Shown piece after piece: positions 4,535-57,764 of a stretch of DNA of 64,000 nt. The stretch lies in NCBI RefSeq assembly GCF_013315695.1, contig NZ_CP054353.1; one strand, given 5' to 3'. A model generated the notes under the pieces. It had not been told where the DNA came from. It saw only the letters and a list, made by a program, of their open reading frames with translations, and made no database searches. The first letter of the stretch is position 1. Each line of letters opens with the position of its first letter. This DNA comes from Escherichia coli. Its GTDB lineage: Bacteria > Pseudomonadota > Gammaproteobacteria > Enterobacterales > Enterobacteriaceae. Both the position numbers and the translations under genes were made by a program.

Positions 4535-4876
4535 TGCGATGTATCTCGCGATTTTTTTTTGTAACTTTTCCATCTTTTGCTTTTCTCTCCGAGCCGCTTT
4601 CCATATCTGCAATCGCATAAAAAACTCTGCTGGCGTTCACAAATGTGCAGGGGTAAAACGGGGGCACGCTTTGAACGGTGAGTATGAGTGAGGTCGGCTA
4701 ACTTCCAGCAAGTGGCTATGAACAGCAAAATGGTGGTCGGGTTTGCTTGTTCTTACCGTTCAAGCCTTGCAACCGCTGAGAATAATGATGGTGGAATAGA
4801 GAGTTTATTTATCGCGGGCATAAAAAAACCCTTACTAACCGAAGCCCGGCGTTCAGGGTTATTGCGCTAGAAGAAC

Positions 4877-5407
4877 TTATTTATTCTTTGCGCGCTCGAA
4901 GGAAGCAACGATTTCAGCTTTAGCGGCTTCTGCGTTTTCCCAACCTTCAACTTTCACCCACTTGCCTTTTTCGAGGTCTTTGTAGTGCTCGAAGAAGTGA
5001 GCGATTTGCGCTTTCAGCAGTTCAGGCAGATCGTTTACGTCTTTAATGTGATCGTATTCTTTGCTCAGCTTGCTGTGCGGAACCGCAACCAGTTTCGCAT
5101 CTTCACCGGCTTCGTCGGTCATTTTCAGAACGCCAACCGGACGGCAACGGATCACAGAACCAGGCTGCAGCGGGTACGGAGTCGGGACCAGTACGTCAAC
5201 CGGGTCACCGTCCAGAGACAGGGTGTGGTTGATGTAACCGTAGTTGCACGGATAGAACATCGCGGTGGACATGAAGCGGTCAACGAACAGTGCGCCGCTC
5301 TCTTTGTCGATTTCGTATTTGATCGGATCTGCGTTAGCCGGGATCTCAATAACAACGTAGATGTCTTCCGGCAGATCTTTACCCGCAGGGACGTTGAGTA
5401 AGCTCAT
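4877..5407 (-). CDS. ppa: Inorganic pyrophosphatase (176 aa)
   Basis: Protein [32 protein letters not shown]... recognised as E. coli Ppa. Confidence 0.97.
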
Positions 5408-5716
5408 GTCTGTTTCCTTTAAAAATATGTGGCAAACAAGTGCCGAGTATTATAGCCAACTCGCGCCGAATGTCTTTGCTTGTTTTCGTCTTCATTTTCC
5501 TTTTTCGCCAGTTTTAAGACGGTATACAGAGCAGGAAAATCCATAACCGTAGCCGCATTTTTCATAGTGAGATGAAAGCGATTACAAACTTGTGATTAAC
5601 GTTTTATTTACTTTTTTGAAGTGTGATGTAACGCAATCCGTTACATAACGAATTGTCTATAGTTTTTTCGCGAACATCTTTTCACCAATAATAATTACCC
5701 CGACGAGGACAACCCT

Positions 5717-10365: not shown

Positions 10366-11364
10366 TTACGCGTCCGGGAACTCACGGATAAAGCGTTCGA
10401 CATCTTCAACCATATGGTCGTTGCCGACAAAGAACGAACGGCGCTGGTGCAGGGTTTCCGGGATAATATCCAGAATACGCTCTTTGCCATCGCTCGCTTT
10501 ACCGCCCGCTTGTTCCGCCAGGAATGCCATCGGGTTGCACTCATACAGTAAACGCAGTTTACCGTCCGGGTGGCTGGCGGTGCTTGGGTAGAGATAAATA
10601 CCGCCTTTCAGCAGGTTACGGTGGAAATCCGCAACCAGTGAACCGATATAACGTGAGGTATACGGGCGGTTGGTGGATTTATCTTCTTCCTGGCAGAATT
10701 TAATGTACTTCTTCACCCCGTTCGGAAACTTAATGTAGTTTCCTTCGTTGATGGAGTAGGTTTTGCCTTTCTCCGGGAAGCGCATCCGTTCCTGGCACAG
10801 GCAGAAAACGCCCAGCGAAGGATCGTAAGTAAAGGCGTGAACACCGCATCCGGTGGTGTAAACCAGCATGGTAGAGGAGCCGTATACCACGTAACCTGCC
10901 GCAACCTGTTTGTTACCAGGCTGGAGGAAATCTTCTTCCGTTACCGGCGTGCCAACAGGCGTAACGCGGCGGTAGATGGAGAAAATGGTACCGACAGAGA
11001 CGTTAACATCGATGTTGGACGAGCCATCCAGGGGGTCCATCAGCACCACGTATTTTGCGTGTTCACAGCCTTCAAAGACGACAATCTCATCTTCTTCTTC
11101 AGAGGCAATCCCCGCAACGATATCGCGTGCTTTCAGTGCGGCTTTCAGTTTTTCATTAGCGAACAAGTCGAGTTTCTGCTGAACCTCGCCCTGCACGTTC
11201 TCAGCACCGCTGGCACCCAGGATATCAACCAGTCCTGCTTTGTTGATATCGCGATGGATAATCTTGGCGCCCAGTTTTATTGCCGACAGCAAAGCAGTGA
11301 GCTCACCGGTAGCATGAGAAAACTCGTGCTGCTTTTCGACAATAAATTCACCTAACGTTTTCAT
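10366..11364 (-). CDS. fbp: Fructose-1,6-bisphosphatase class 1 (332 aa)
   Basis: Protein starts [12 protein letters not shown]...; the longer 393-aa ORF is an upstream in-frame extension. Confidence 0.95.
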
Positions 11365-11539
11365 AAAACTTTCCCTGCAATGTTTATGGAGTAAAGCGAC
11401 CGCAACAATCTTAACAAATAATCTCAATGTTGCGCTCAGGTGAATCGCGCCAGCAAATTGCGGATTATCCTGAAATGCGTTTCTCACTTGCCCGACATAT
11501 GCGTAAAATGAGCGGCAGATTAAAAAAGGATAGTGACGT

Positions 11540-12913
11540 ATGCGCATTCATATTTTAGGAATTTGTGGCACGTTTATGGGCGGTCTGGCGATGCTGGCGC
11601 GCCAGTTAGGCCATGAAGTAACGGGTTCGGACGCCAATGTGTATCCGCCGATGAGCACCTTACTTGAGAAGCAAGGCATTGAACTGATTCAGGGTTACGA
11701 TGCCAGCCAGCTCGAGCCGCAGCCGGATCTGGTGATTATTGGCAACGCCATGACCCGTGGAAATCCGTGTGTGGAAGCGGTACTGGAAAAAAACATCCCT
11801 TATATGTCAGGTCCACAGTGGCTGCACGATTTTGTGCTGCGCGACCGCTGGGTGCTGGCCGTTGCCGGTACACACGGCAAAACCACCACCGCGGGAATGG
11901 CGACCTGGATTCTGGAACAGTGTGGTTACAAACCGGGATTTGTGATCGGCGGTGTGCCGGGGAACTTTGAGGTTTCGGCGCGTCTGGGCGAAAGCGACTT
12001 CTTTGTTATCGAAGCGGATGAGTACGACTGCGCCTTCTTCGACAAACGCTCTAAATTTGTCCATTACTGCCCGCGTACGCTGATCCTCAACAACCTTGAG
12101 TTCGATCACGCCGATATCTTTGACGACCTGAAAGCGATCCAGAAACAGTTCCACCATCTGGTGCGTATCGTTCCGGGGCAGGGCCGTATTATCTGGCCGG
12201 AAAATGACATCAACCTGAAACAGACCATGGCGATGGGCTGCTGGAGCGAGCAGGAGCTGGTGGGTGAGCAGGGTCACTGGCAGGCGAAAAAGCTGACCAC
12301 CGATGCTTCCGAATGGGAAGTTTTGCTGGATGGCGAAAAAGTGGGCGAAGTGAAATGGTCGCTGGTAGGCGAACATAATATGCACAATGGCCTGATGGCG
12401 ATTGCAGCGGCTCGCCATGTTGGTGTAGCGCCGGCAGATGCCGCTAACGCGCTGGGTTCGTTTATTAATGCTCGTCGCCGTCTGGAGTTGCGTGGTGAAG
12501 CGAATGGCGTCACGGTATATGACGATTTTGCCCATCACCCGACGGCGATTCTGGCAACGCTGGCGGCGCTGCGTGGCAAAGTTGGTGGTACGGCGCGCAT
12601 TATTGCTGTGCTGGAACCGCGCTCGAATACCATGAAAATGGGGATCTGCAAAGACGATTTGGCACCTTCATTAGGTCGTGCCGATGAAGTCTTCCTGCTG
12701 CAACCGGCGCATATTCCGTGGCAGGTGGCAGAAGTGGCAGAAGCCTGCGTTCAGCCTGCACACTGGAGTGGCGATGTGGATACGCTGGCAGATATGGTGG
12801 TGAAAACCGCTCAGCCTGGCGACCATATTCTGGTGATGAGCAACGGCGGTTTTGGTGGGATCCATCAGAAACTGCTGGATGGTCTGGCGAAGAAGGCGGA
12901 AGCTGCGCAGTAA
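11540..12913 (+). CDS. mpl: UDP-N-acetylmuramate:L-alanyl-gamma-D-glutamyl-meso-diaminopimelate ligase (457 aa)
   Basis: Mur ligase family ORF (GTHGKTTT P-loop); divergent from fbp. Confidence 0.95.
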
Positions 12914-40002: not shown

Positions 40003-41818
<1,816 letters not shown>

Positions 41819-42081
41819 CTACGCTCCTGAATCTTAAAGACAACGGCGGTGGCTACAGATAGAATTGCAAGCTTTCGTAACTCATGTCCGCTGTTGCGAT
41901 GACTTCGTGTTAATCTTAACGTTATTACGGCATTGGCACGTCAGAACAAAATCTGAGAGGTGAATCCGTTGAGTATAATTATCTTAGCGACGATTTCGAC
42001 GACTCAAGAGAATAAATGACGTTTAAGCCATGAAACAAGCTAAAATCCTGCAAAAGACGAGTTTTTACGGGCGTATTTAAA

Positions 42082-43182
42082 GTGATAATCATAAGATATC
42101 TGGTGCGGGAGACGCTCAAAAGCCAGCTGGCGATACTCTTCATCTTGCTTTTGATCTTCTTCTGTCAAAAGTTAGTGAGGATCCTCGGCGCAGCGGTTGA
42201 CGGCGATATTCCGGCGAATCTGGTGCTCTCCCTTCTCGGGTTGGGCGTGCCGGAAATGGCGCAGCTTATCCTGCCATTAAGCCTGTTCCTCGGGCTGCTG
42301 ATGACGCTGGGCAAACTGTATACCGAAAGTGAAATTACGGTAATGCATGCCTGCGGCCTGAGCAAAGCGGTTCTGGTGAAAGCGGCAATGATCCTTGCGG
42401 TATTCACGGCAATCGTCGCGGCGATTAACGTGATGTGGGCGGGACCGTGGTCATCGCGTCATCAGGATGAAGTGTTAGCAGAAGCGAAAGCGAACCCTGG
42501 CATGGCGGCGCTGGCGCAAGGGCAATTCCAGCAAGCGACTAATGGCAGTTCGGTGCTGTTCATCGAAAGCGTTGACGGCAGCGATTTCAAAGATGTGTTC
42601 CTCGCGCAAATTCGACCAAAAGGTAATGCACGTCCTTCTGTGGTGGTGGCCGATTCCGGACATTTAACCCAGCTGCGCGACGGCTCCCAGGTCGTCACTC
42701 TCAACCAGGGAACGCGCTTCGAAGGCACTGCACTGTTACGTGATTTCCGCATTACGGATTTCCAGGATTATCAGGCGATCATTGGTCACCAGGCGGTGGC
42801 GCTCGACCCGAACGATACCGACCAGATGGACATGCGCACATTGTGGAACACTGACACCGATCGTGCTCGCGCAGAACTGAACTGGCGTATCACGTTGGTA
42901 TTCACCGTGTTTATGATGGCACTTATGGTCGTACCGCTGAGCGTGGTTAACCCACGTCAGGGACGCGTACTGTCGATGCTGCCAGCCATGCTGCTGTATC
43001 TACTTTTCTTCCTGATCCAGACCTCCCTGAAATCGAACGGCGGTAAAGGTAAGCTGGACCCGACGCTGTGGATGTGGACCGTTAACCTGATTTATCTGGC
43101 TTTGGCGATTGTTCTCAACCTTTGGGACACCGTGCCGGTCCGCCGCCTGCGCGCCAGTTTTTCGCGTAAAGGAGCGGTGTGA
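42082..43182 (+). CDS. lptF: LPS export ABC transporter permease LptF (366 aa, GTG start)
   Basis: Starts (V)IIIRYLVRETLKSQ; divergent from pepA. Confidence 0.95.
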   Translation: MIIIRYLVRETLKSQLAILFILLLIFFCQKLVRILGAAVDGDIPANLVLSLLGLGVPEMAQLILPLSLFLGLLMTLGKLYTESEITVMHACGLSKAVLVKAAMILAVFTAIVAAINVMWAGPWSSRHQDEVLAEAKANPGMAALAQGQFQQATNGSSVLFIESVDGSDFKDVFLAQIRPKGNARPSVVVADSGHLTQLRDGSQVVTLNQGTRFEGTALLRDFRITDFQDYQAIIGHQAVALDPNDTDQMDMRTLWNTDTDRARAELNWRITLVFTVFMMALMVVPLSVVNPRQGRVLSMLPAMLLYLLFFLIQTSLKSNGGKGKLDPTLWMWTVNLIYLALAIVLNLWDTVPVRRLRASFSRKGAV

Positions 43183-44264
43183 TGCAACCTTTTGGCGTAC
43201 TTGACCGCTATATCGGTAAAACTATTTTCACCACCATCATGATGACGCTGTTCATGCTGGTGTCGCTGTCGGGCATTATCAAGTTTGTCGATCAGCTGAA
43301 AAAAGCCGGGCAGGGGAGTTACGACGCGTTAGGCGCAGGAATGTATACCTTGCTGAGCGTGCCGAAAGATGTGCAGATCTTCTTCCCGATGGCGGCTCTG
43401 CTTGGGGCGTTGCTTGGTCTTGGGATGCTGGCGCAGCGCAGCGAACTGGTGGTGATGCAGGCTTCTGGTTTTACCCGTATGCAGGTGGCGCTGTCGGTGA
43501 TGAAAACCGCCATTCCGCTGGTCTTACTGACGATGGCGATTGGCGAATGGGTCGCGCCGCAGGGCGAGCAGATGGCGCGTAACTACCGTGCGCAGGCGAT
43601 GTACGGCGGCTCGTTGCTCTCTACCCAGCAAGGCTTATGGGCGAAAGATGGCAACAACTTCGTCTACATTGAGCGGGTTAAAGGTGACGAAGAGTTAGGT
43701 GGCATCAGCATTTATGCCTTTAACGAGAATCGTCGTCTGCAATCCGTACGCTATGCCGCTACTGCGAAGTTTGACCCGGAACATAAAGTCTGGCGTCTGT
43801 CGCAGGTTGATGAATCTGATCTGACCAATCCGAAACAGATTACCGGTTCGCAGACGGTGAGCGGCACCTGGAAAACCAACCTCACGCCTGACAAACTGGG
43901 CGTGGTGGCGCTGGACCCGGATGCACTCTCTATCAGCGGTTTGCACAACTATGTGAAGTATCTGAAGTCGAGCGGTCAGGATGCCGGACGTTATCAGCTC
44001 AACATGTGGAGCAAAATCTTCCAGCCGCTATCTGTGGCGGTGATGATGCTGATGGCGCTGTCGTTCATCTTTGGCCCACTGCGTAGCGTACCGATGGGCG
44101 TGCGTGTGGTCACCGGTATCAGTTTCGGTTTTGTCTTCTACGTACTGGACCAGATCTTCGGCCCGCTGACGTTGGTTTATGGCATCCCGCCGATCATCGG
44201 CGCACTGTTGCCAAGCGCCAGCTTCTTCTTAATCAGCCTGTGGCTGTTAATGAGAAAATCGTAA
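43182..44264 (+). CDS. lptG: LPS export ABC transporter permease LptG (360 aa)
   Basis: Starts MQPFGVLDRYIGKTI; 1-nt overlap with lptF stop (TGATG). Confidence 0.95.
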   Translation: MQPFGVLDRYIGKTIFTTIMMTLFMLVSLSGIIKFVDQLKKAGQGSYDALGAGMYTLLSVPKDVQIFFPMAALLGALLGLGMLAQRSELVVMQASGFTRMQVALSVMKTAIPLVLLTMAIGEWVAPQGEQMARNYRAQAMYGGSLLSTQQGLWAKDGNNFVYIERVKGDEELGGISIYAFNENRRLQSVRYAATAKFDPEHKVWRLSQVDESDLTNPKQITGSQTVSGTWKTNLTPDKLGVVALDPDALSISGLHNYVKYLKSSGQDAGRYQLNMWSKIFQPLSVAVMMLMALSFIFGPLRSVPMGVRVVTGISFGFVFYVLDQIFGPLTLVYGIPPIIGALLPSASFFLISLWLLMRKS

Positions 44265-44278
44265 CCGAATGAACGAAT

Positions 44279-44308
44279 AAAGGGAGCGAAAGCTCCCTTT
44301 ATTATTGT
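44279..44308 (+). terminator. Intrinsic terminator after lptG
   Basis: Hairpin aaagggagc-gaaa-gctcccttt followed by attattgtt. Confidence 0.75.
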
Positions 44309-44398
44309 TAGCAAAGTGTGCTTCGTTCATTCCTGAAAAATAATTAAAATTCAATATATTGCAGTGGGGTGGGCATGATAAGACGCGCCAGCGTCGCA

Positions 44399-45928
44399 TC
44401 AGGCAAAGACAAATCTCGCCTGACTTACCTTCTTCTCCCCCCCCAGCAAACTCCCCAACATCCCGCGTACAATCTGATTCGTCACCTGGCGAGCGGCGCT
44501 TTTGGCCATTGTTTGCACCACACCATCTTTCTTCCCGCCGCGTGGTCCGGTAGTGCCGAACAAAATATCCTTCAATCCACCAAGAATGCCGTCATCCACC
44601 GCTACCTCTTTCCCTTTCGCGGGGGGATTATTTTGCTGCTCGGTACTGGCCTGAAAGCCTTTTTGCAACATCTCATAGGCGGATTCCCGGTCCACCTCAT
44701 CCTCATATTTGCCATACACCGGAGAGTGATTAATCAAGCCATTACGCTCATCTTCCGTCACCGGTCCCATCCGCGAACAAGGCGCAATCACCATCGCCCG
44801 TTCCACCACAGAAGGGCTTCCTTTCGCATCCAGAAAAGAGATCAACGCCTCGCCGGTGCCCAGTTTCTGAATCGCCTTTTCGGTATCAAATGCCGGATTG
44901 ACCCGCATGGTTTGCGCCGCAGCTTTTACCGCTTTCTGATCTTTGGGCGTAAAAGTCCGCAAAGCGTGTTGAACGCGATTACCGAGCTGGCCGAGCACGT
45001 TATCCGGAATATCGGACGGATTTTGCGAAACGAACCAGACGCCCACGCCTTTTGAGCGAATAAGCCTTATCACCTGCTCAATCTTATCCAGCAGTACCTG
45101 CGGTGCATCGTTAAACAGCAGATGTGCCTCGTCGAAGAAAAACACCAGTTTTGGTTTCTCCAGATCGCCCGCTTCCGGCAATTGTTCATACAACTCCGAG
45201 AGCATCCACAACAGGCTGGCGGCATACAGTTTCGGCATCTGATAAAGCTTCTCGGCGCTGAGGATATTGATAACGCCTTTACCGTTGGCATCGGTGCGCA
45301 TCCAGTCTTTGATATCCAGCATCGGCTCACCAAAGAAGTGTGCTGCGCCTTGCTGTTCCAGCGACAACAGCCCGCGCTGGATGGCACCAACCGATGCGCT
45401 ACTGATATTTCCGTACTGATTCTGGAAAGATTTGGCGTTATCGCCGATGTATTGGGTAATCGCCCGCAAATCTTTAAAGTCGAGCAGTAACAGCCCCTGA
45501 TCGTCAGCAATGCGGAAGATGATATTCAGCACGCCAGATTGCACATCGTTGAGATTCAACAGCCGCGCCAGCAACAGCGGCCCCAGATCCGAAACCGTCG
45601 CCCGCACCGGATGGCCTTTCTCGCCAAAGATATCCCACACCACCACCGGATTGGCATGCGGTTGCCAGTCATTGACGCCGATATTTTTAAGCCTTGTGAG
45701 CAGTTTTTCCGACGCCGTTCCTGCCTGCGCGATACCGGTCAGATCGCCTTTCACATCAGCCATAAACACCGGCACGCCGATTTCCGACAATGACTCTGCC
45801 AGTTTTTGCAGCGTAACGGTTTTACCCGTCCCCGTTGCGCCAGTAATCAGCCCGTGACGGTTAGCCATTCCCGGCAGTAAAAACAGTTCTGTGTCCGGCG
45901 TGCGGGCAATTAACAGGGGTTCGCTCAT
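44399..45928 (-). CDS. yjgR: Uncharacterised ATPase YjgR (DUF853), about 509 aa
   Basis: Walker A (GATGTGKT) and Walker B (FFFDEAH); start at [11 protein letters not shown] is uncertain. Confidence 0.85.
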
Positions 45929-46055
45929 GAGATTTCCTCCAGTTCCTGCCTGGAGTATAGGCAACGGCTGTGCACTCTTCACCGCTAAATTCAGCAGATT
46001 GCGAGACGCCTTCCAAAGAGATTTAAGTGCCGGGCGACAGCACCCGGCAAAGGGA

Positions 46056-47075
46056 TCAGAAGTCAGCTTTCAGGACTACTCGGTAGCGAGCTTTACCATC
46101 GCGTACATGCTGAATGGCGTCGTTAATTTTCGACATCGGGAACAGTTCGGTTGTCGGCGCAACCTTGCTGCGGGCGGCAAAGCGCATCAGCTTTCGCAGC
46201 TCATAAGGCGTGCCGGTAGCAGAACCAGAGATGCTGCGGTCGCCCGCAATTAACGTAAAGGCCGGAACAGACAGCGGCGTGAGAACCGCACCGACCGTAT
46301 GGAAATTACCGCCATAGGTCAGCGCCTCAAAATAAGGCTGCCAGTCGAGGCTGACGTTCACAGTATTGATAATGAGATCAAACTGCCCCGACAGGGCTTT
46401 CAGTGCCTGCGGATCGCGGCTATTCACCACTTTATCGGTACCCATCGCCAGTACTTCCTGCTCTTTCGCCGGATTAGAACTAAAGGCCGTCACCTCGCAT
46501 CCCATTGCGTGCAGAAGTTTTATAGCGATATGCCCCAGCCCGCCAATACCAATTACCCCAACGCGGCTGGTAGCAGTGATATGGTGCATCAACAGTGGTT
46601 TAAAGACCGTGATACCGCCGCACAACAGCGGCCCGGCGGACTCGATATCAATATTTTCTGGCAGTGGAATCACCCATTGCCAGTCCGCACGCAACTTCTC
46701 GGCAAAGCCACCGCGATTCATAATCGTCGGCACCGCACCTTGCTCGCAGTTGATCTGATTACCGCTAATACAGGCGTCGCAGTGACCACAGCTACGCGCC
46801 GTCCAGCCAATCCCGACACGCTGACCGACCTGCAAACCTTTATCCTGCGCGGCGCTCCCGAGTGCCACCACGCGCCCAATCACCTCATGCCCGGCAACCA
46901 GCGGATATTGTGAAAATCCCCATTCGTTATCGATCATCGACAGATCGGAATGACAAATCCCGCAGTAATCCACCTGCACTTCAACATCTTGTGGCTTCAG
47001 CTCACCGGGATCGTACTCATAAACTTCCAGTTCGCCGCCCGCTTCTTTTGCGGCATAGCTTTTTATCATCGACAT
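46056..47075 (-). CDS. ahr: NADPH-dependent aldehyde reductase Ahr (YjgB), Zn-dependent ADH family (339 aa)
   Basis: Zn-ligand motif GHEVIG, structural-Zn cysteines CGHCDAC, GIGGLG NADP motif; start at MSMIKSY. Confidence 0.95.
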
Positions 47076-47213
47076 TTTTGGGTCCTTCTCTGGTGTTGTT
47101 TGGGAAGTGTAGAGCATGGCAGGGCGGGGTGCCTGGAGTGTGACAAAGGTTACATATCGCTGAGTGTAATGCTGAAAATTTCAGCACTTAGCGAGGTGGG
47201 TGCAAGCTGGCGC

Positions 47214-47241
47214 TTGCATGGTGGCGTGCGACAGGTATAAT
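47214..47241 (+). promoter_or_regulatory. Candidate sigma70 promoter for leuX
   Basis: TTGCAT (-35), 16-nt spacer, TATAAT (-10), about 30 nt upstream of the tRNA. Confidence 0.5.
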
Positions 47242-47270
47242 CCACAACGTTTTCCGCATACCTCTTCAGT

Positions 47271-47355
47271 GCCGAAGTGGCGAAATCGGTAGACGCAGTT
47301 GATTCAAAATCAACCGTAGAAATACGTGCCGGTTCGAGTCCGGCCTTCGGCACCA
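47271..47355 (+). tRNA. leuX: tRNA-Leu (anticodon CAA), 85 nt with long variable arm
   Basis: Sequence gccgaagtggcgaaatcggtagacgcagttgattCAAaatcaaccgtagaaatacgtgccggttcgagtccggccttcggcacca. Confidence 0.95.
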
Positions 47356-47889
47356 TCTACATTTTCCTCTTGAAAAACAAGCGATTAAGTAAATTATTTT
47401 ACCTTTTTTGCCTATCTAATCTTCACTGATTCTTTCCCGTATAAAAGCCACTGTGATTGTTAATGGCTTTGGTATGTTAGCACGCAGTGGCAAGTAGTTA
47501 CCAGGCTCAACCTTGTACTGCATACGCCAGTATGCCCCCCTTTGAAGCAGGAAGACGCGCCGCCGTCTCTAAACCTATGCCAAGCACTTTTAACCGTTCC
47601 ACACTTAGTTCGGCGTTCCGTTCAAGCCTGTCGTGGTGACTTACCACGAATAAACAAGCAAATTCGCGGTATGGTATTCGTTACGAGAGCGGTTAACTGA
47701 CAAGACTCCTGTGATACGCCTAAGGTGCTTAAATTGATGCGTCCAACATGGCACAAAAGGCGGTCTATCGTTTAATTTTGCTCCATACATCAACTGGCAT
47801 TGCCAGCTGTATGGGGCTTGGTCTGCTGGTTCCGATGAACGGATTAAATTGCTAAGATGCAGACCATAAGCCATAAGGCGGAGATAAGT

Positions 47890-49098
47890 ATGAAATCTGT
47901 AGAACTATTTGCCGGTGCTGGTGGCTTGGCTATGGGTTGCGAAATTGCTGGTTTTGAGCATCTTGCAGTCGTTGAATGGGATAAATGGGCCTGTGATACC
48001 GTTAGAGAGAACAAAAAGAATGGCTTTCCGCTGTTGTCTGATTGGGATCTTTTTGAGGGTGATGTAAGAGAATTTGATTGGTCGAAAATCCCTAAAGGGA
48101 TTGACCTTCTTGCGGGAGGGCCACCTTGCCAGCCATTTTCAATCGGTGGTAAGCACAAGGCTAATTCTGATTCGCGGGACATGTTTCCAGCGACAGCAGA
48201 AGCGATCAGGCAAATTCGCCCTAAGGCTTTCATCGTCGAGAATGTGAAAGGCTTAACACGGGCAACCTTTGCGAGCTATTTCCAGTACATCCAGTTACAG
48301 CTTGAGTTTCCAGAAGTAGCCCCGCGAAATGGCGAAGACTGGAGCGAGCATTTAAAACGCTTGCAGGAAGAAAAAACCAGTGGAAAGAACAAAGGGAGAG
48401 GGCTGACGTATAACGTTCTGGCTACGTTAGTCAATGCAGCAGACTACGGCATCCCACAAAAACGTGAGCGTGTCTTCATTGTTGGCTTCCGCGATGATCT
48501 TGAAATTGAGTGGTCGTTCCCTAAACCGACACACAGTTATGATGCACTCGTTTATGATCAGTGGGTTACTGGTGATTACTGGAAACGACATGGTTTAGAA
48601 ATGCCAACTGTTCCAAGCCAGATGGTTAACCGTATCGCAAAATTGCGTAAAAATCCTCCCGATACACTTCCGTGGAAAACTGTTCGAGATGCAATCGCGG
48701 ATTTGCCAGATCCTGAAACAAAGGCGGCAAAGATGATCCGGAATCATGCGTTCCAGGCGGGGGCACGAACTTATCCCGGTCATACCGGAAGCCCCTTAGA
48801 TCTGCCAGCTAAAACGCTCAAAGCAGGTGCTCATGGCGTTCCTGGGGGCGAGAACATGCTTGTTCGTGATGATGGCTCAGTACGCTATTTTACTGTGCGA
48901 GAAAGTGCCAGAATTCAAACATTTCCCGATAGTTATCGTTTTCACGGGAGTTGGACTGAAACTATGAGGCAGTTAGGTAACGCTGTGCCGGTTCATTTGG
49001 CGTATTGCGTTGCCAGCAGTGTAGCGGAAAAGCTGCTGACCTCTGAAATTGGGAACATCCTTAAGCAGGGTGGCAATTATAAAAGGGCTTCTGCATGA
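47890..49098 (+). CDS. DNA (cytosine-5)-methyltransferase, Type II R-M modification subunit (~402 aa)
   Basis: C5-MTase motifs I FAGAGG, IV PPCQPFS, VI ENV, VIII QKRERVFIVG, X GNAV; SD GGAG upstream of ATG 47890 (ORF track starts at 47857). Confidence 0.85.
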   Translation: MKSVELFAGAGGLAMGCEIAGFEHLAVVEWDKWACDTVRENKKNGFPLLSDWDLFEGDVREFDWSKIPKGIDLLAGGPPCQPFSIGGKHKANSDSRDMFPATAEAIRQIRPKAFIVENVKGLTRATFASYFQYIQLQLEFPEVAPRNGEDWSEHLKRLQEEKTSGKNKGRGLTYNVLATLVNAADYGIPQKRERVFIVGFRDDLEIEWSFPKPTHSYDALVYDQWVTGDYWKRHGLEMPTVPSQMVNRIAKLRKNPPDTLPWKTVRDAIADLPDPETKAAKMIRNHAFQAGARTYPGHTGSPLDLPAKTLKAGAHGVPGGENMLVRDDGSVRYFTVRESARIQTFPDSYRFHGSWTETMRQLGNAVPVHLAYCVASSVAEKLLTSEIGNILKQGGNYKRASA

Positions 49099-49745
49099 CA
49101 GGAAAGGTCATACCATTTAATCCACTTGATAAACAAAATTTAGGTGCCAGCGTTGCGGAAGCCTTATTGAGCAAAGATGCTCATCCTCTGGAGGAGTTAA
49201 CCTCATTTCAAGGAGCAGGGATTTACGCAATTTATTACACTGGCGATCATCCTGCTTATAGGCAACTGGCAGAACTGAATCGTGACGGGCAATTTCGATT
49301 GCCTATCTACGTGGGTAAGGCCGTCCCAGCAGGGGCGAGAATGGGGCTTACCAACCCTGATAAGGTTGGTAACGTTCTGTTTAGGCGCTTGAAAGAACAT
49401 GCAGAAAGTATTCGCGCAGCGGAAAATCTTTCGATTGAAGATTTTTATTGTCGATTTTTGGTTGTTGATGACATCTGGATCCCATTGGGAGAATCGCTGG
49501 TTATCTCTCGCTTTAAACCGATTTGGAATTCGTCTATTGATGGTTTCGGTAATCATGACCCAGGTAAGCATCGCTACACTGGTTTACGTCCTCGCTGGGA
49601 CTTTATGCACCCGGGGAGAGGATGGGCTCAAAATTTACGTGAGCGTGATGAAACTGTGGATGAACTCATTCGTGATTCTATACAGTATCTTCAGAATTTA
49701 CCGCCTTGCTTGGCTCAGAAATTTATCGAAGCTGAAGGCGATTAA
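49095..49745 (+). CDS. GIY-YIG-family restriction endonuclease, Eco29kI/Cfr42I-like (216 aa)
   Basis: GIY...YVG motif (GIYAIYYTGD...RLPIYVGKA); start overlaps the MTase stop (ATGA). Confidence 0.65.
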   Translation: MTGKVIPFNPLDKQNLGASVAEALLSKDAHPLEELTSFQGAGIYAIYYTGDHPAYRQLAELNRDGQFRLPIYVGKAVPAGARMGLTNPDKVGNVLFRRLKEHAESIRAAENLSIEDFYCRFLVVDDIWIPLGESLVISRFKPIWNSSIDGFGNHDPGKHRYTGLRPRWDFMHPGRGWAQNLRERDETVDELIRDSIQYLQNLPPCLAQKFIEAEGD

Positions 49746-49866
49746 TCAGCAAATGATCATCGGAGGCATCTGCCTCCGAATGTGATTAAGCCTTGGTTGA
49801 CAAAGTGGTTGCTTAAAACATTAAGCGTTAATTTTCTGGCCCTCTACCTTCTGACGTGCATAATTC

Positions 49867-50442
49867 TCAAATATCAGGGAGTTGCAAGAACGACTTAAGT
49901 CGGTAGAAGGTTGCTTTGCTGATCTCTAACCTATCCTGGACCGCTGCTGGTGGTAATCCTCGTGCTAATAACTCACGTACTTGTTCAACGGTTGCTTTGA
50001 TCGGTCTGCCGCAATGCTTACCTTCCGACTGAGCTCGTTTGATTCCTGCGGCTCTACGCTCTGCGATTAGGTCTTTTTCCAGGCTGGCAAGTCCTGCCAT
50101 CATAGTGAGCATGGCTTTACCCACTGGTGTTGAAAGATCAAACCCCTCTCGCAAGCTGACAACCTTCACACCCTTCATTTGCAACATTTCAACAGTAGAT
50201 AGTACATCGATAGTGTTACGTCCCAAGCGGTTTATAGCAATCACGATCAGCGTATCGCCTTCTCGCACATAATTGAGTAGTTCAGCAAACCCTGGACGCT
50301 CTCCTGCCTTGATTGCACCACTCACCGCTTCATCACTAAACCAGCGAGTTACGCTATAACCAGCATCGGCTATCTGCTTCTTCTGGTTTTCAACGTTTTG
50401 ATCGCTGGTGGAAACTCGCACATATCCGATCACAGTTGTCAT
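49867..50442 (-). CDS. Serine recombinase, resolvase/invertase family (191 aa)
   Basis: N-terminal catalytic motif IGYVRVSTSDQ and C-terminal HTH. Confidence 0.85.
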   Translation of the reverse strand: MTTVIGYVRVSTSDQNVENQKKQIADAGYSVTRWFSDEAVSGAIKAGERPGFAELLNYVREGDTLIVIAINRLGRNTIDVLSTVEMLQMKGVKVVSLREGFDLSTPVGKAMLTMMAGLASLEKDLIAERRAAGIKRAQSEGKHCGRPIKATVEQVRELLARGLPPAAVQDRLEISKATFYRLKSFLQLPDI

Positions 50443-50454
50443 GATGTTCTCTAA

Positions 50455-50576
50455 GTCTCAAAAGGTAGTGTCAAAATAATAGCTGTCTCAAAATTAAAGA
50501 TCAACCTTTTGAGACAAGGCGAAGCCGCATTCTGTCGTTGCGTCGGTGTGGTCTTATAAGGAGATGGTTTTGAGAC
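50455..50576. promoter_or_regulatory. Candidate res/recombination site: GTCTCAAAA repeats upstream of the serine recombinase
   Basis: GTCTCAAAA at 50455 and 50485, GTGTCAAAA at 50468, inverted TTTTGAGAC at 50507 and 50568. Confidence 0.45.
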
Positions 50577-50681
50577 TGGATAGCAGCGGTTTAGGAATAG
50601 AGGCTTGGAACGAGAGTATGGGGAGAATGGAAATTCGGAATGGGCGGTCAACTTATTGGGCGTGATTGCTCACGCCTTTGT

Positions 50682-51033
50682 TTAGATCTCAGAACACAGG
50701 CTCAGCGTGTAGAGTGCCGTTTCACCATCGTTGTTAGTTGGGCGCATAACGAAAACTGGATCACTGCCGTTGTCGATGTAAGTAACCGCTATTCCACCGT
50801 CTGGGGTGGCGTACATCTTCGCAATACTTTTCTCTCCAATGAAACCCAGCCGCCAGGTTTTACCACCCATGCTCACTTTCATGATTTTGTCCCGCACATC
50901 GAGGCGAGTTTCGACAGACGATTTTTGGCTACCAGAATCTATCTGCCCTTCCTGAATGGCCTTACAGGTGAATGTGGTTGCACTTGAGGCGAAGGGGGGG
51001 GACGAGCAGCGCCGCGAGAATCAATTTTTTCAT
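50682..51033 (-). pseudogene. Small secreted protein gene interrupted by a G8/C8 homopolymer frameshift (possible phase-variable gene)
   Basis: ATG at 51033 encodes signal peptide MKKLILAALLV then 8 C at 50994..51001 shifts frame; 7 or 10 C would join it to the 71-aa ORF 50682..50897. Confidence 0.5.
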
Positions 51034-51213
51034 GGTCTTCCTTTTGGATACGAGTTAAGAGTTCGTCGGGAGACATTATAAAATCTTTAATTGATAAAAA
51101 CGATCAATTTCTATCGTATTGATCGATAAAATTGATCATAATTGAAACTATAAATCCTACGCTCAGTCGTTATGGATGAGGTTTTTTATAAGAGAACTCA
51201 ACGGGATGATGTT

Positions 51214-51420
51214 ATGAAAAGAGCAATGATGGTGATGTGTGGGCTACTGTTTTCACAGTTGGTAGCAGCAGGGCAGATCACAATGATCGATCCCCAGCAG
51301 GATACGACGGAGAATGGCAAGACGCTTTGCACCTACGAGAACAGCCAGTATGTTTTTACCTACGTCACTAAAGGGCAGTGCCCCTATGCAAAGACTTTCG
51401 ATACTCAGGATTCAGAGTAG
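51214..51420 (+). CDS. Small secreted cysteine-containing protein (68 aa from MKRAMM)
   Basis: Signal peptide MKRAMMVMCGLLFSQLVAAG; mature part has two Cys (TLCTY, GQCPY). Confidence 0.5.
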   Translation: MKRAMMVMCGLLFSQLVAAGQITMIDPQQDTTENGKTLCTYENSQYVFTYVTKGQCPYAKTFDTQDSE

Positions 51421-52604
51421 AGGCTGCATAAAATAGGAAGTGTTGTTTAACTTCATGAAAAGACAGGTGTGCTTAGCACAAGCCTCCAACGGATTGATTG
51501 TTAATTCTTCTGATAACGGCACAGCGCAAGGCTTTACGCAAAGAGAGTGATAGTTACTATCTTGATGACTATGGCAATTTTCCCCCTGTAACAACGGCAT
51601 TCATTACCTGCTAATTACCAGCGGATTACGCGCCAGTTTGATGGGAATTAACTCAGGGTTATTGCATGGGGTAGTGTGGAGTGAGCAGGGTGACAGTCTA
51701 CCGTTGGGTGAAGGGCTGATAGGTAATCGACGCGAAGCGCCGGAACCATACTGTTATGCGCTGGCCTTGGTGCCAGGCTCACGCCGCGCATGAAAGATAG
51801 CCATTACAGGAGAGATAATTTTTGACAAGTTACCTTCATCAAAGGTGCTTCTCCTGTATAAATGCTTGTTATGCTCGCTATGCTCCCAAACACAAACCCA
51901 TTAAACCCAACTAACTTAAGGTTAGTTAATTGGTTTTCTCTCTCTCTTGGGCTACTACCGCCCAAACTTTGCTTAATGCCATACAGCGACTACGCCGCCA
52001 TTAACAACACTCCACAATGATCCAATGGCATTCCTGCTTAATGTCATCCACCGATCTTGATTAGCCACCAACCAAACAACCACCCTAAATCTTTTAGGCT
52101 GTCTGTTTATCTGGTGCAAGGTAGCTATGACATTACCATACGTGCAAACATCCCAAGCCAATCATCACTGATTGGCTCGTGCTGATGCACTTCAGTGCAG
52201 AGAGAGAATCTCTCTACTATTATAGCGTATTTAGTAGGTCCCTGTATTTAAAGGAAAAATTAGGGTGAAAATCGCCATTGTTCACTTTTTTTCTCAAGAA
52301 ATGGCGAGATGCTGTTCGTAAATGGGAGGCATGGCTGTCTTCTCTGGTGGCAAGTTCTACCACAAATTTTGATTGACAGCAACCATCTATTTCTGGTATA
52401 AGAAGCACTAATTGCAAAGCAAAAATGCAACTAATTGAAAATGACCAAAAATATTTCATGAGATCACCGTTTGGGTATTGACAAACGTTAGTGGTCTATG
52501 GTATTCTTAATACTAAGAAGGGGAGAAAACCTTCTGAACTTTTCAGCCCTGGGCAGGGTAACTGCCTGGGGCTTTTTGCATCCAAAATCCGAAGGAGGCC
52601 ATTA

Positions 52605-52781
52605 TTGAAGTATTACAGCAGTGACCAGATTTTTAATGACCTGGTGAGCGGCGAAGTGAAACGCCACGTTATTTACGCATCTATGCAAGCAGCAAAATCG
52701 AGAGGGTATACAGACCGAATGGAAATGTTTCAATCTGCAATTATCCGTTATGACCAACACCGAAGGGAGAACACCAACTAA
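52605..52781 (+). CDS. Hypothetical small protein (58 aa, TTG start)
   Basis: Perfect SD AGGAGG 6 nt upstream of TTG 52605; stop overlaps the next gene's SD; function unknown. Confidence 0.4.
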   Translation: MKYYSSDQIFNDLVSGEVKRHVIYASMQAAKSRGYTDRMEMFQSAIIRYDQHRRENTN

Positions 52782-52790
52782 GGAGGAACA

Positions 52791-53711
52791 TTGATTCAAG
52801 CATACGAAGACGGCTATTTTTACAGAGATACCCCGCACCACGATCACTGCCCGCTTTCAGCATTTTCCAGACCATCCCAGCAATTCATCGTTATTGATAA
52901 TGTTCTGTACGTTGTCGAAGTGGAAAGTGGTGAAATTCTTCACTACGACTCGACAGAGTATTTGCTTGATGGTGGCATTGTTCAGGATCTGCATTTGAGT
53001 TACTCGACAGCAGACACCGCCAAATCAAAACAGGCTCACCGTGAATACGCTAATAAGCTGGGCGACCTTCCAGGGAATGCAGCCTATAACGGGATCAAGG
53101 AATACGCAGACGTATTAAGCAAGCCAGATTTCAAGAAAGTATTTGCATTGTGTCAGGAAGTAGATAGACGCAATGTAGTGTTTATAAAACGTGCGGATTT
53201 GAGCATAATACTGAACACCACGCCGGATCATCTCAATCGTGTATTATCTGCTCTTGAACGTAAGCACTACATCAAAGTTGATAAAGCTGAACACCAGAAA
53301 GGAGTATTAAAACTGTGGGTTAATCCTTCGTTTGTCTGGAAGGGTGATTCAGCTAACCGCTACTTATCTGGATATTTGCAGGGCTTCCCAATCTTGGAAC
53401 GTAAACGCTCCACAAAACGTTCTGACGTGCTCGACACGCTCACGGCTGCTGCAATGGTTGCCTTTGATACCTGGCACATTGAACACGGTTATAAGGCCAA
53501 TCAGCCTCATTCTAATGAATGGTATGCAGAGATCACGATGTACGAAAACGCCTACGGCGAAGGGGTGAGGCTTGCAGCAGAAAATAAGACATTGAACAAG
53601 TTATTGAACCCGGCAACATCTGAGGGGGATTTCGTTTATGAGCTATTCACTACGGCACAATACAGGGAATACCTGCAAACATTGGCAAAACAAGTAAGGA
53701 GATTACACTGA
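52791..53711 (+). CDS. Hypothetical protein (306 aa, TTG start) with possible winged-helix region
   Basis: SD AGGAGG at 52781..52786, TTG at 52791; N-terminal His/Cys cluster (HHDHCP); central helix-rich segment; no recognised catalytic motif. Confidence 0.6.
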   Translation: MIQAYEDGYFYRDTPHHDHCPLSAFSRPSQQFIVIDNVLYVVEVESGEILHYDSTEYLLDGGIVQDLHLSYSTADTAKSKQAHREYANKLGDLPGNAAYNGIKEYADVLSKPDFKKVFALCQEVDRRNVVFIKRADLSIILNTTPDHLNRVLSALERKHYIKVDKAEHQKGVLKLWVNPSFVWKGDSANRYLSGYLQGFPILERKRSTKRSDVLDTLTAAAMVAFDTWHIEHGYKANQPHSNEWYAEITMYENAYGEGVRLAAENKTLNKLLNPATSEGDFVYELFTTAQYREYLQTLAKQVRRLH

Positions 53712-53995
53712 ACCAATGTTTTGTAATAAAGAAGCCAGCACAATACTTATTTGAACTAAATTAAGCAACTCTCATACACACCGCTCTTTTGGTGAGTTAT
53801 TTATTACTATCTTTAAGGTGATGAGTGTTTATACTGTATTAAATTATTATAAATAAGGGGATGGTGTATGATTACAGCTCTTTATTGGTGTTTGTTCTTT
53901 CAGTTTGCGCTGTATTTTTTGTCTAAATTAAATTTAAATTGAAAATTAGCCCTGATCTTGAAATAGTTCAGGGCTGGAATTTCTAAAAAATAACA

Positions 53996-54955
53996 TCAGT
54001 GTGCTTTTAGTTCATCTTTAGCTAATGAGTCATAGAGTATTTTTGTGAGCGGAGACTCTAAATAATCATCACTAAGTAGTTTAATAAAATGCTTTTGGGA
54101 TTCTTTTGTTTTTACGAGCAATTGTGTGCCGTCTTCACTTACAATTAAAACTGTTGAAAGATAGGTATGCTTGCTTACATAATCGATAATTTCTGGCACA
54201 TCAATTTTCCCCAGTACAGGTGAGTGTTTGGCAATTTTGGCAAGCTTCCTTGAGAAAGAAATTTCTTTTGCACTCTTCTCAAGGTGAGTAAGATCTTCGA
54301 TAAGCAATGAAGCTTTCAATGCTTCCAAAGCCACCGTTGCTTGAGCTTCAATAACCTGATGGAACTGCATCGTTATTTCTAAAGTTTTTTGATTTTTTAT
54401 CAGGAATTCGTCGTCTATAAGAGCCAAGTCATAATTATAATCTAATCGGAACACTTGGGTTGGCAATTCTTTTAAATACCCGTCTGCGTCTGGTATCAAG
54501 TTAAACAATTTTCGGCTTTGCTCAAAAACCATGAGGTTTGTTTTGTTCTTATACAATGACAAACACTTATTGTTGCCTCTTAACTGAATTATTATCCCTT
54601 TCACGTCAGTAAATTTATTATTTAAATCATAATAATCCTGAGAGTTAGGCGGTATGGCTATTGCATTTTTTATAAAATCAAACTCTTTTGGATGTTCTTC
54701 ATAATCAAATGCAAACAAGGCATTTTTTCTATCATCAAAATTCGAAAGGAGAGGAATGGTTAAATCCTCATTTGTCACAATGTCGTCGTAAAGCCTAATT
54801 TTGAATCCTTCAACAATTTTTGGTAAAGCTTCAGCATCTATTTTAGATAATTTTAATTCATAATTATCTTCAGTTTTAACTATAAAGATAATTCTTATAC
54901 CTGAGAAATTATCGAAAATTTCGGTGATTTGATTTTTAAAATTCACAGGGGTCAT
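53996..54955 (-). CDS. Candidate Kiwa KwaB-like (DUF4868-like) defence protein (319 aa)
   Basis: AT-rich soluble ORF coupled by 1-nt TAATG overlap to the upstream 4-TM protein; assignment is by architecture only. Confidence 0.45.
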   Translation of the reverse strand: MTPVNFKNQITEIFDNFSGIRIIFIVKTEDNYELKLSKIDAEALPKIVEGFKIRLYDDIVTNEDLTIPLLSNFDDRKNALFAFDYEEHPKEFDFIKNAIAIPPNSQDYYDLNNKFTDVKGIIIQLRGNNKCLSLYKNKTNLMVFEQSRKLFNLIPDADGYLKELPTQVFRLDYNYDLALIDDEFLIKNQKTLEITMQFHQVIEAQATVALEALKASLLIEDLTHLEKSAKEISFSRKLAKIAKHSPVLGKIDVPEIIDYVSKHTYLSTVLIVSEDGTQLLVKTKESQKHFIKLLSDDYLESPLTKILYDSLAKDELKAH

Positions 54956-55542
54956 TATTTTTTCCTTGCTATGAAAACGTAGTCATCAAAAAAACTATAG
55001 AATACTTGATCGTCAACAGTCAGCACATCCATCGAGATTGCAATGACGTTTTTTACTTCACCACTTCCTGCATGAGAAATGTTAACTCTATACAACTTAT
55101 AACCGAAAAGCGCCAAAGTAGGATTCGCATAATACTTATCCGTTTTAATGAAAATTAAACCAATAACTACTATTAAGAGAAAGTACGCAATGTTTTTCTG
55201 AGGGTCATCAAAACTGAATCCCATAAAAGGTACTATGTAAGTTGCTAAGAAAGTCAAACTTTCATAGCTCTCACTTTGGCAAGCAGTGATTGTTACACAG
55301 TCAGCATTGTTGACCTTCGTCAATCCTTTAAACCTTCTATAGAAATAAAATGCTATTCCTATAAAAATTAAACAAATTATTGAGATTATGTTGCTGGAAG
55401 CTAATTGATAAAAACCTATAAAATGGCAGGAAGAGCCATAACAAAATGGGATTTTTGCGCTCAAAATGATAATAAAAACAAACAGCAACATTAAAGACAG
55501 TATGTATAGTCCCATCTTGTTGAATGTGCTTTTTCGTTTCAT
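54955..55542 (-). CDS. Candidate Kiwa KwaA-like membrane protein (~195 aa, four predicted TM helices)
   Basis: Four hydrophobic segments; start taken at MKRKSTF with GGGGGA SD (ORF track starts 10 codons upstream). Confidence 0.45.
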   Translation of the reverse strand: MKRKSTFNKMGLYILSLMLLFVFIIILSAKIPFCYGSSCHFIGFYQLASSNIISIICLIFIGIAFYFYRRFKGLTKVNNADCVTITACQSESYESLTFLATYIVPFMGFSFDDPQKNIAYFLLIVVIGLIFIKTDKYYANPTLALFGYKLYRVNISHAGSGEVKNVIAISMDVLTVDDQVFYSFFDDYVFIARKK

Positions 55543-55826
55543 GTTATCCCCCAGTGATGAAATCATAATCAAAACTTGATCATGTGAACATCAAAAGCAT
55601 ACCTTAAAGCACTGGTTTTTTGTACAGCAATCGGCAAATTCATGCGTACTATCGAACTTACAAGAGGACGCATAGTAGATTTTCTGATCCAAATTGCCAT
55701 CATGTACTTTTAATTCATGTAGAGTAGCCAATGAAGTATCAGCAATTACATGATTTTATTGTCTATTTTTTATGTTTTTTTGTAAAACACCAGAAGATTG
55801 AAAAGGGCCAATGAGGCCCCTTGGCG

Positions 55827-56078
55827 TTATTTACGGTTTTTGTTGGATTGAGCCAGCACGGAAGCAGCAAGCTGCTTGGTTAAAGTACTGGAACGTGGAT
55901 TATCCAGCGCCGCAGATGCTTTATGTTCCATTGCACCACTTGTCTGATTTGAGGAACCTTTTTGAGAGAGAGCTGAACCAGCAAGGCTCTTCTGAATTGC
56001 AGATGCGTTGGGGTTGTTTAGGGTTTGTGCTGCGACTGATGCGACTTTACTTGATGTTTGCTTTGAATTGTTAGCCAT
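55827..56078 (-). CDS. Hypothetical low-complexity Ser/Ala/Gln-rich small protein with ~20-aa internal repeats (83 aa)
   Basis: Repeats of A-[AS]-x-[LA]-x-Q (SVAAQTLNNP / SLAGSALSQK / SAALDNPRSS / LAASVLAQSN); no TM segment. Confidence 0.35.
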   Translation of the reverse strand: MANNSKQTSSKVASVAAQTLNNPNASAIQKSLAGSALSQKGSSNQTSGAMEHKASAALDNPRSSTLTKQLAASVLAQSNKNRK

Positions 56079-56309
56079 TCTCAACACCTATTCAAGAAGT
56101 GAATTATTGAACATCTTGTATTTAAATCAAGAATGAATACAAGATGTAGTGTTAATGATAATCCTCACCGCTTCGCTGTGCAACGATGAAAAATCTCTTT
56201 ACTGGATAAAACTACAGTTTTAAAAATGTGCGGTATTTCTGCTTTCAAATTGGCTTAATGTGCATACATTTAGATGATACCACTGCGTTTTCTGATCGTT
56301 ATTCGTTCA

Positions 56310-57587
56310 CTATTTATCAGTTTTCTCACGTTGGGGCTCCGTCTCTATCTCTGGGTAACGTAATAGCTCGATGTATGGCTGTAGTTCAATCGGAGATGCT
56401 GCATTCTTGCTGTACGTCTTGAAACTTTCTGTAGAGCCGCGCTCATGACCCAAGAGAAGTGCGATCCGGTCTTCTGTAACTGGTTTTAACTTACCTCGTC
56501 CAACCCCCCCACGATCCAGAATCTGCGCCACTGCATGGCGTAGACTGTGAAAAACTTTCAACTCTGATCCTACTTCCCCCAATGCCTTACGTTTAGCCCT
56601 CGTAAAACGCTGTGAATGCCACGTAGAGCGCTTTCCATCTGCGCGGTCAGCTATCGACGCACGATAGAATAAAAAGCCGTTATGGGGCTTCTCACGCAGC
56701 GACAAAACCAACGGAGTGATCAGGCTATGCACCGGAATAATACGGGCTGCTGATTTGGTCTTCCCCTCCGTCACTTCGAAACATAACACCCCTTCAATCT
56801 CTCGGATGTTGGCTGCACGTAATGAACAAATTTCATTCAGGCGCATACCGCTATACATCCCGATCAGCGTTACATTTTGCATCTCTTCATCATTCGCCAT
56901 CACAGCGAACACCTTCGCCAATTCTCCAGGCTCAAATACTTCATAACTCACCTTGCTACTTTTGGCCTCCAGCGCATGACCGCGCCAGATGTTTTCTTGC
57001 GGTGCATCGTGGTAGCGATTACGGGCCAGATCCCAGATTTGAGCCAGTGCGCTGACATAGTTTTGTATGGTCTGTGGTGCTTTCTCCGTCTTGAGCTGAT
57101 CAAGCCAGCCTGTAACGGTGGTTCGGTTAACGTCACGAAGCTGAACATCACGCTTTTTCAGATGTTCTAAGAGCACTTCAACAGCCTTGTTTGTCTTCGA
57201 TAGCGTAGTGAGTTTGCGCTTCTCGCTGAACTGCAATAGATAAAGATCACGCATTTTCAGGAGGGATGGCACTCCTTGGGATTGGGTATTGCTCATGACA
57301 TGCTGAACAGGTGTTTCATGAACTCGGGCGCTAACTCTGCGTAGCTCTGCAATTGCCTGCTCAATCTTACTCCCTTCTCTTGGTTTGACCTGTTCCCGTA
57401 AACGTATCCATTCAACAGCGATAGCATCTCTGAACAATCGCGCCTGACGTATGTCACTTGTGCCAGTGCTCTTGACGAAGTAGCGCTTGTTGCCAAAAAG
57501 CGAGCGCATGTAAGCTGGAACGGTAATCCTTACCAGATAGTTTCCGCATGGATCTAAAACTAAGTAACGATCTCTCTTGAAACTCAT
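56310..57587 (-). CDS. Tyrosine site-specific recombinase (island integrase), ~425 aa
   Basis: C-terminal catalytic region with conserved R...HxxR...Y (SLRHAVAQ ... ESFKTYSK); adjacent to island att repeat. Confidence 0.85.
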   Translation of the reverse strand: MSFKRDRYLVLDPCGNYLVRITVPAYMRSLFGNKRYFVKSTGTSDIRQARLFRDAIAVEWIRLREQVKPREGSKIEQAIAELRRVSARVHETPVQHVMSNTQSQGVPSLLKMRDLYLLQFSEKRKLTTLSKTNKAVEVLLEHLKKRDVQLRDVNRTTVTGWLDQLKTEKAPQTIQNYVSALAQIWDLARNRYHDAPQENIWRGHALEAKSSKVSYEVFEPGELAKVFAVMANDEEMQNVTLIGMYSGMRLNEICSLRAANIREIEGVLCFEVTEGKTKSAARIIPVHSLITPLVLSLREKPHNGFLFYRASIADRADGKRSTWHSQRFTRAKRKALGEVGSELKVFHSLRHAVAQILDRGGVGRGKLKPVTEDRIALLLGHERGSTESFKTYSKNAASPIELQPYIELLRYPEIETEPQREKTDK

Positions 57588-57707
57588 GTTCACCCCGGCT
57601 ATTTTGTAAGGGCTTTTACATGGGGAAGTTTCCTGTGTAGATTGTTGGAGCGGCGAATTATTAGCAGTTGATTCAATAGCTTAGATCAGCTTGCTGGACA
57701 AGCGAAC

Positions 57708-57750
57708 ACCGTAGAAATACGTGCCGGTTCGAGCCCGGCCTTCGGCACCA
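57708..57750 (+). repeat. Direct repeat of leuX 3' end (island attR), 43 bp with one mismatch
   Basis: accgtagaaatacgtgccggttcgagCccggccttcggcacca versus tRNA 47313..47355 (T in the tRNA). Confidence 0.9.
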
Positions 57751-57764
57751 TCGGAACATCAATA

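Follow-up and report, generated by a model that had tools for sequence, protein, structure and literature searches.

The window, i.e., the whole 64,000-nucleotide stretch of Escherichia coli DNA analyzed here, contains the genes yjgR and ahr, which are directly adjacent to each other and lie next to a leucine tRNA gene. The junction comprises the following features.

44399-45928, minus strand: yjgR, encoding a DUF853/HerA-like ATPase of 509 amino acids, the left anchor of the junction (open reading frame list)
45929-46055: ahr-yjgR spacer, 127 bp
45929-45966, minus strand: yjgR-proximal part of the spacer, 38 bp common to idn-minus and idn-plus haplotypes; homology to K-12 runs to 45966
45967-46055: segment specific to the idn-less allele, 89 bp, at the position of the K-12 idnR-T-O-D-K block (5,087 bp)
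46015-46045, minus strand: intrinsic-terminator-like hairpin of ahr, GCCGGGTG-CTGT-CGCCCGGC followed by a T-rich tail (terminator scan)
46056-47075, minus strand: ahr (yjgB), encoding an NADPH-dependent aldehyde reductase of 339 amino acids, the right anchor (RefSeq annotation)
47271-47355, plus strand: leuX tRNA-Leu, which fixes the synteny yjgR-ahr-leuX (Rfam tRNA match at 47271-47352)

The name yjgR is that given by RefSeq to the identical sequence in strains UMNK88 and EcPF7. The encoded protein shares 98.2% amino acid identity with K-12 YjgR, of which it is an ortholog, and the HerA_C domain (PF05872) precomputed on near-identical homologs places it in the YjgR family. On the minus strand, the gene extends from an ATG at 45926-45928 to a stop codon at 44399-44401. 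This ATG is also the start annotated by RefSeq, and a Shine-Dalgarno sequence, GGAGG (45936-45940), is located 7 nt upstream of it; the longest yjgR open reading frame starts at an upstream in-frame GTG at 45982, at a distance of 73 bp from ahr. The Ahr protein is 98.8% identical to its K-12 counterpart, and its whole-protein score of 550.5 bits against NCBIfam NF047908 (cutoff of 470) assigns it to this family. The stop codon of ahr is at 46056-46058 on the minus strand. A tRNA-Leu is annotated at the aligned positions of K-12 and EcPF7, which map to 47271-47355.

Two minor observations concern the 3' end of yjgR. A poly-C run at 44437-44444 contains eight residues here and seven in K-12, so that the final yjgR codons are frame-shifted; the protein has 509 amino acids with C8, compared with 500 amino acids and a C-terminal LLGGRRR with C7. 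The C8 variant is also present in UMNK88 and EcPF7. Downstream of yjgR, REP-type repeats were noted at 44369-44406, with a subthreshold naRNA4 match at 44373-44405.

In the MG1655 annotation, the gene order is lptF-lptG-yjgR-idnR-idnT-idnO-idnD-idnK-ahr-leuX, as a previous reading of the window made from its sequence only had stated. The genes of the K-12 GntII/L-idonate locus (idnK and idnDOTR) correspond to b4264-b4268. The K-12 locus occupies the same slot, with the same flanks (lptFG-yjgR ... ahr-leuX), as the junction in the window, but contains all five idn genes, whereas the window lacks all five. BLAST aligned positions 41001-45966 of the window with positions 1138-6103 of the K-12 locus L001, and positions 46056-47355 with positions 11191-12490. 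The breakpoints with respect to K-12 are thus located 38 bp upstream of the yjgR ATG on the left and at the ahr stop codon on the right, and 89 bp (45967-46055) are found here in place of 5,087 bp in K-12. No IdnK, IdnD, IdnO, IdnT, or IdnR is encoded between yjgR and ahr, where the 127-bp spacer is too small for a gene. Furthermore, a tblastn search with the K-12 Idn proteins retrieved no idn ortholog in the window, the only matches being the distant paralogs treR, bdcA, and ahr at 21 to 28% identity.

The five-gene GntII cluster is consequently missing from the ahr/yjgR slot of the window. The sequence-only reading had claimed this absence, which is borne out by both the K-12 alignment and the tblastn search, and the interval to which it was assigned coincides exactly with the ahr-yjgR spacer. 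Its estimate of about 70 bp for the distance between both genes needs correction, since the gap measures 127 bp and a value of 73 bp results solely when counting from the GTG at 45982. The two alleles also differ in the sequences next to the breakpoints. Beyond position -39, the yjgR upstream region of K-12 is the idnR 3' flank and differs from that of the window. Similarly, the ahr terminator hairpin of K-12, where 3 bp separate the end of idnK from the ahr stop codon, differs from that of the window and sits inside the idnK 3' end.

The frequency of both states was determined in 5,426 complete E. coli genomes. The yjgR and ahr genes were contiguous as in the window in 3,212 genomes (59%), and the full 127-bp spacer was found in 3,211. 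Idn DNA was detected in 2,055 genomes (38%), with a median of 1 and a maximum of 2 places per idn-bearing genome, and about 160 genomes (~3%) had neither the contiguous junction nor idn and contained other rearrangements. The junction query matched 7,481 places in 5,425 genomes, which corresponds to 2,056 extra places and nearly equals the number of idn-bearing genomes. Split junctions and the presence of idn therefore go together, which argues against idn being hidden elsewhere in genomes with a contiguous junction. The idn-plus genomes matched the spacer query only at positions 1 to 38, and the cluster was found in the ahr/yjgR slot in every idn-plus genome inspected.

Both slot states were found within phylogroups. 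The slot is empty in UMNK88, EcPF7, O157:H7, and ST131 O25:H4, and it is filled in K-12, B-strain derivatives, UM146, and ABU 83972. The four idn-less lineages share the junction architecture of the window, with spacers that are 96 to 100% identical to its spacer; the junction of UMNK88 is 100% identical. Published data agree with this variability: the ST131 strains JJ1886 and S250 lack idnK, which was found in SE15 (PMC5369007), and in a pangenome study, the five idn genes were accessory, occurring at frequencies of 83% and ~31% in its two genome sets (PMC8545132). The idn-less allele is hence the majority state in E. coli and an ordinary, already documented difference in gene content.

These data support the statement of the sequence-only reading that the locus is known to be variable. 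The alignments it had suggested, to MG1655, B-strain, and pathogenic genomes, showed the slot to be filled in K-12 and in the B-strain derivatives Nico21(DE3) and NEBExpress and empty in O157:H7 and ST131 O25:H4. The non-K-12 background that it had deduced from the absence of idn is confirmed, the window being ~99.95% identical to the urinary isolate EcPF7 (NZ_CP054232.1) and having a different leuX island; however, the empty slot, as the majority state, says little about the background beyond "not K-12 or B."

As a separate observation, most of ahr is deleted in E. coli CKJ_1000_3.1 (L004 6098-6333), which belongs to the class of ~160 genomes with neither state. This strain forms part of a minority of Escherichia genomes (also loci L095-L097) in which ahr is mostly or wholly lost beside leuX and yjgR is kept. 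Some of these ahr-less flanks hold other cargo, namely, Dsr1/SIR2 defense genes or a PLD-helicase gene.

The spacer has orthologs in Escherichia albertii, an Escherichia fergusonii-type genome, Citrobacter koseri, and Citrobacter werkmanii. In these four, the junction is empty and measures 127 to 139 bp, with the same hairpin and the same block upstream of yjgR; the differences are limited to species-level substitutions, most of which fall within the ahr-proximal half and the loop of the terminator. We generated an eight-taxon alignment that also included E. coli O157, ST131, and CB7453, in which the mean column identity of the spacer was 86%. By comparison, E. coli and Citrobacter share ~82% identity over ahr itself. 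Approximately 75 bp on the yjgR side were nearly invariant over the eight taxa, following the pattern ...CGCAATCT.C..AATTTA.CGGTGAAGAGT......GTTGCCTATACTCCAGGCAGGA...GGAG..ATCTCATG, and the block GTTGCCTATACTCCAGGCAGGA was invariant from E. coli through Citrobacter. A -10-like hexamer, TATACT, is present at 45954-45959, within the yjgR-proximal 38 bp. Even in Enterobacter cloacae, where the slot holds another gene, the core GTTGCCTATACTCCA is kept upstream of yjgR. Outside this core, the sequence upstream of yjgR in E. cloacae shares just the short blocks CGCAA and GAATTTA with the 89-bp segment, a likeness too weak to be given weight.

On the ahr side, the terminator scan returned a match at 46045-46025, which identifies a rho-independent terminator at the ahr 3' end. 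Its stem was 98.4% paired over the eight taxa, and two base pairs carried compensatory changes; 40 of 500 shuffles equalled this result, and the support is therefore modest. Folding of the entire spacer was no better than that of shuffled sequence (z = -1.0). The spacer matched no Rfam 15 family, the scan of positions 44000-48000 having returned only the leuX tRNA and the subthreshold REP/naRNA4 match at 44373-44405. A strict scan of the spacer for sigma-70 consensus promoters was negative, and the role of this region as the yjgR promoter is deduced from the conservation around TATACT. Read in the direction of transcription, the spacer looks like the ahr terminator, followed by a putative yjgR promoter, a leader, and the ribosome-binding site. 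It is probably an intact ancestral intergenic region rather than the scar of a deletion.

The idn block, in turn, differs from its surroundings. The idn genes have GC contents of 43 to 51% (GC3 of 36 to 54%), compared with 54 to 56% (GC3 of 61 to 69%) for lptG, yjgR, and ahr. The block is 98.7 to 100% identical among K-12, UM146 (B2), Eco_24-2013, and 2014C-3655, and 1,973 of the 2,055 idn-bearing genomes show an identity of at least 99% to K-12 across it. With respect to K-12, both flanks are ~95.5% identical in UM146 and Eco_24-2013 (yjgR, ~95.5%; ahr, ~95.6%), and 2014C-3655 shows values of 95.7% for yjgR and 99.0% for ahr. Where the junction is contiguous, the identity of its 1.2-kb flank goes down to 93.6%. 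As whole genes, yjgR and ahr are unusually diverse within E. coli, with ~95% identity between lineages.

The last 150 bp of ahr track the idn state, being at least 97.3% identical among idn-plus genomes, 90 to 97% among idn-minus genomes, and 89 to 95% between the two classes. In the window, ahr shares 99.4% identity with K-12 over its first 620 bp, whereas its last ~150 bp (46056-46205) are 89% identical to K-12 and 90 to 94% identical to other idn-less E. coli, making this segment unusually divergent even among idn-less lineages. The ends of the idn block in K-12 (L001 6104 and 11190) were searched for direct repeats, inverted repeats, and target-site duplications, all of which were lacking. 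Mobility genes were likewise missing at these borders, and the block consists of the five idn genes alone. The block accordingly does not qualify as a genomic island or mobile element, the lower GC content being its sole island-like trait.

The low GC content, the uniform identity of the block, and the pattern in its flanks, together with the empty junctions of E. albertii and the E. fergusonii-type genome, fit an empty Escherichia ancestor, and the presence of the idn block appears to be derived in E. coli. From these data we infer the following order of states and mode of spread. The ahr/yjgR slot would have been empty in the Escherichia ancestor. A lower-GC idn block of 5.09 kb would then have replaced the 89 bp, giving rise to the K-12-type allele, and this comparatively young haplotype would have been disseminated in E. 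coli via homologous recombination of its flanking genes and not as a mobile element. We have good confidence that this is the best explanation overall, i.e., that the window carries the empty, probably ancestral allele and that the K-12-type allele results from a later block moved by flank recombination; the ancestral status of the empty state in this lineage, taken by itself, is judged likely, with marginally less assurance. The word "absent" would then most likely mean that this haplotype never acquired idn in the slot rather than that idn was deleted.

The main alternative is that an idn-bearing ancestor lost the five genes in one or more deletions and that the 89 bp are what was left over. 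The presence of idn in the identical slot of two genera, with a roughly core-like divergence, speaks for such a loss, and the spacer resembles the 5' end of idnT in a patch of 14 positions, 12 of which match (GCGAGACGCCTTCC). However, this patch is the lone likeness between spacer and idnT, and past these 14 bp, the identity drops to chance according to our own count on that alignment. When the junction was compared with the idn block of K-12 by blastn (word size of 7), no significant idn remnants were detected, the best stray match having an E value of 0.26. Furthermore, a leftover would hardly be expected to look like the junction actually observed, which is conserved across Escherichia and Citrobacter, with a seemingly functional terminator and almost no variation upstream of yjgR. 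The slot is also empty in both E. albertii and the E. fergusonii-type genome. We consider a deletion scar unlikely.

One genome, strain MLI104K2 (NZ_CP116925.1), appeared to bear on this alternative. It contains 928 bp between yjgR and ahr (L003 8395-9322), in which pieces of idnR (84%) and of the 5' portion of idnT (87.5%) are followed by sequence of the empty type and then by the last ~20 bp of idnK, an arrangement that would fit stepwise decay. This haplotype is, however, unique among the 5,426 genomes. The interval includes homopolymer runs of A9 and G10 and an annotated "hypothetical protein," and its fragments are 12 to 16% diverged, yet the adjacent ahr 3' end is 98 to 100% identical to that of idn-plus strains. 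Considering its single occurrence, the homopolymer runs, and the diverged fragments beside a near-identical flank, we rejected its interpretation as a frozen decay intermediate; the hybrid interval is probably an assembly problem or a recombinant. This strain had also suggested an idnT relic in the spacer of the window, a candidate that was dropped when the direct similarity shrank to the 12-of-14 patch.

A second alternative, that the idn genes lie elsewhere in the genome and only their position differs from K-12, draws on the fact that the window spans just 64 kb of the genome. It is very improbable in view of the approximately one place per genome at which idn occurs in the 2,055 carriers, the agreement of this number with that of split junctions, and the location of the cluster in this slot wherever idn-plus genomes were inspected. 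An assembly or sequencing artefact that collapsed the region can practically be dismissed, as the identical junction is present in UMNK88 and EcPF7, and other species as well as 3,212 complete E. coli genomes share the architecture.

To return to the reading that we favor, an empty allele with a later idn block, the comparison with other genera adds a further dimension. A YjgR scan of genome contigs yielded, among the matches listed, mostly distant Betaproteobacteria and 5 usable Enterobacteriaceae loci; further taxa were added via contigs that encode homologs, and the comparison covers Escherichia, Citrobacter, and Enterobacter. In Citrobacter sp. FP75 and the Citrobacter amalonaticus group, the idn cluster is present at the same two breakpoints. 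These Citrobacter idn genes share 77.5 to 83% nucleotide identity with K-12, close to the 81.5 to 88% of the flanks, which indicates that the filled allele is also old; one ancient deletion with subsequent spread of the empty allele is a less likely course of events. Both alleles are thus old and occur in two genera, with one or both having either passed between genera or been maintained as a polymorphism over long periods. In Enterobacter, the same slot holds cargo in the order ahr-dak-yjgR, and the core motif upstream of yjgR is kept. This cargo is a single gene and not idn:

L008 8217-9863, L009 8224-9930, and L108 5226-6863, on the strand opposite to both neighbors: Dak1/Dak2 dihydroxyacetone-kinase-like gene of Enterobacter

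The ahr/yjgR boundary may be an old, fixed cargo slot of the Enterobacteriaceae that is empty or occupied by idn or dak; its presence/absence polymorphism would either predate the genera or result from repeated exchange by homologous recombination. This proposal is based on the fact that in both Escherichia and Citrobacter, empty and idn-filled slots share the same breakpoints to the nucleotide, and the hyper-diverse flanks and the young idn haplotype apparently spreading in E. coli fit it as well. We put it forward tentatively, rating its chances at slightly below even.

The absence of idn predicts that this strain does not use L-idonate or 5-ketogluconate via the GntII pathway and is devoid of IdnK, the second gluconate kinase, and of the IdnT transporter. 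Gluconate use through GntI is predicted to be unaffected; ST131 strains without idnK still grow on gluconate (PMC5369007). The regulation of yjgR could also differ between the alleles, given the conserved, presumably ancestral upstream region in the window and the idnR 3' flank beyond -39 in K-12. Metabolic models and annotations carried over from K-12 should drop the idn reactions for this strain. At this locus, K-12 represents the minority state, and "missing relative to K-12" is not to be taken as gene loss. The locus would illustrate, on a small and clear scale, how an accessory operon can be moved by recombination in its flanks in the absence of mobile-element machinery, although its importance is limited to little beyond strain typing and metabolic prediction.

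Several other variable regions were observed in the window. A leuX island of 10.4 kb (47313-57752) has 45-nt direct repeats corresponding to the 3' end of the tRNA at its two borders (47313-47357 and 57708-57752; 98% identical). Among its genes are those for an Eco29kI-family restriction endonuclease and a DNA cytosine methyltransferase (~47890-49745), kwaA and kwaB of Kiwa (~53996-55542), and a tyrosine integrase (~56310-57587), together with a gene of the recombinase family. This insert is absent from UMNK88. Beyond the second att repeat, positions 57949-64000 correspond to an older, degraded island, in which an integrase pseudogene with an internal stop is followed by fragments of IS3, IS66/ISEc23, IS110/ISEc45, and IS21/IS100. 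The holC-pepA spacer (40003-40298) is expanded and contains REP-related copies, with two stretches of ~200 bp that are offset by 98 bp and 93% identical. Similarly, repeats of ~180 to 200 bp with 87 to 89% identity are present in the interior of yjgL (31767-31998), where their offsets are multiples of 18 bp, which suggests a repetitive protein segment in YjgL.
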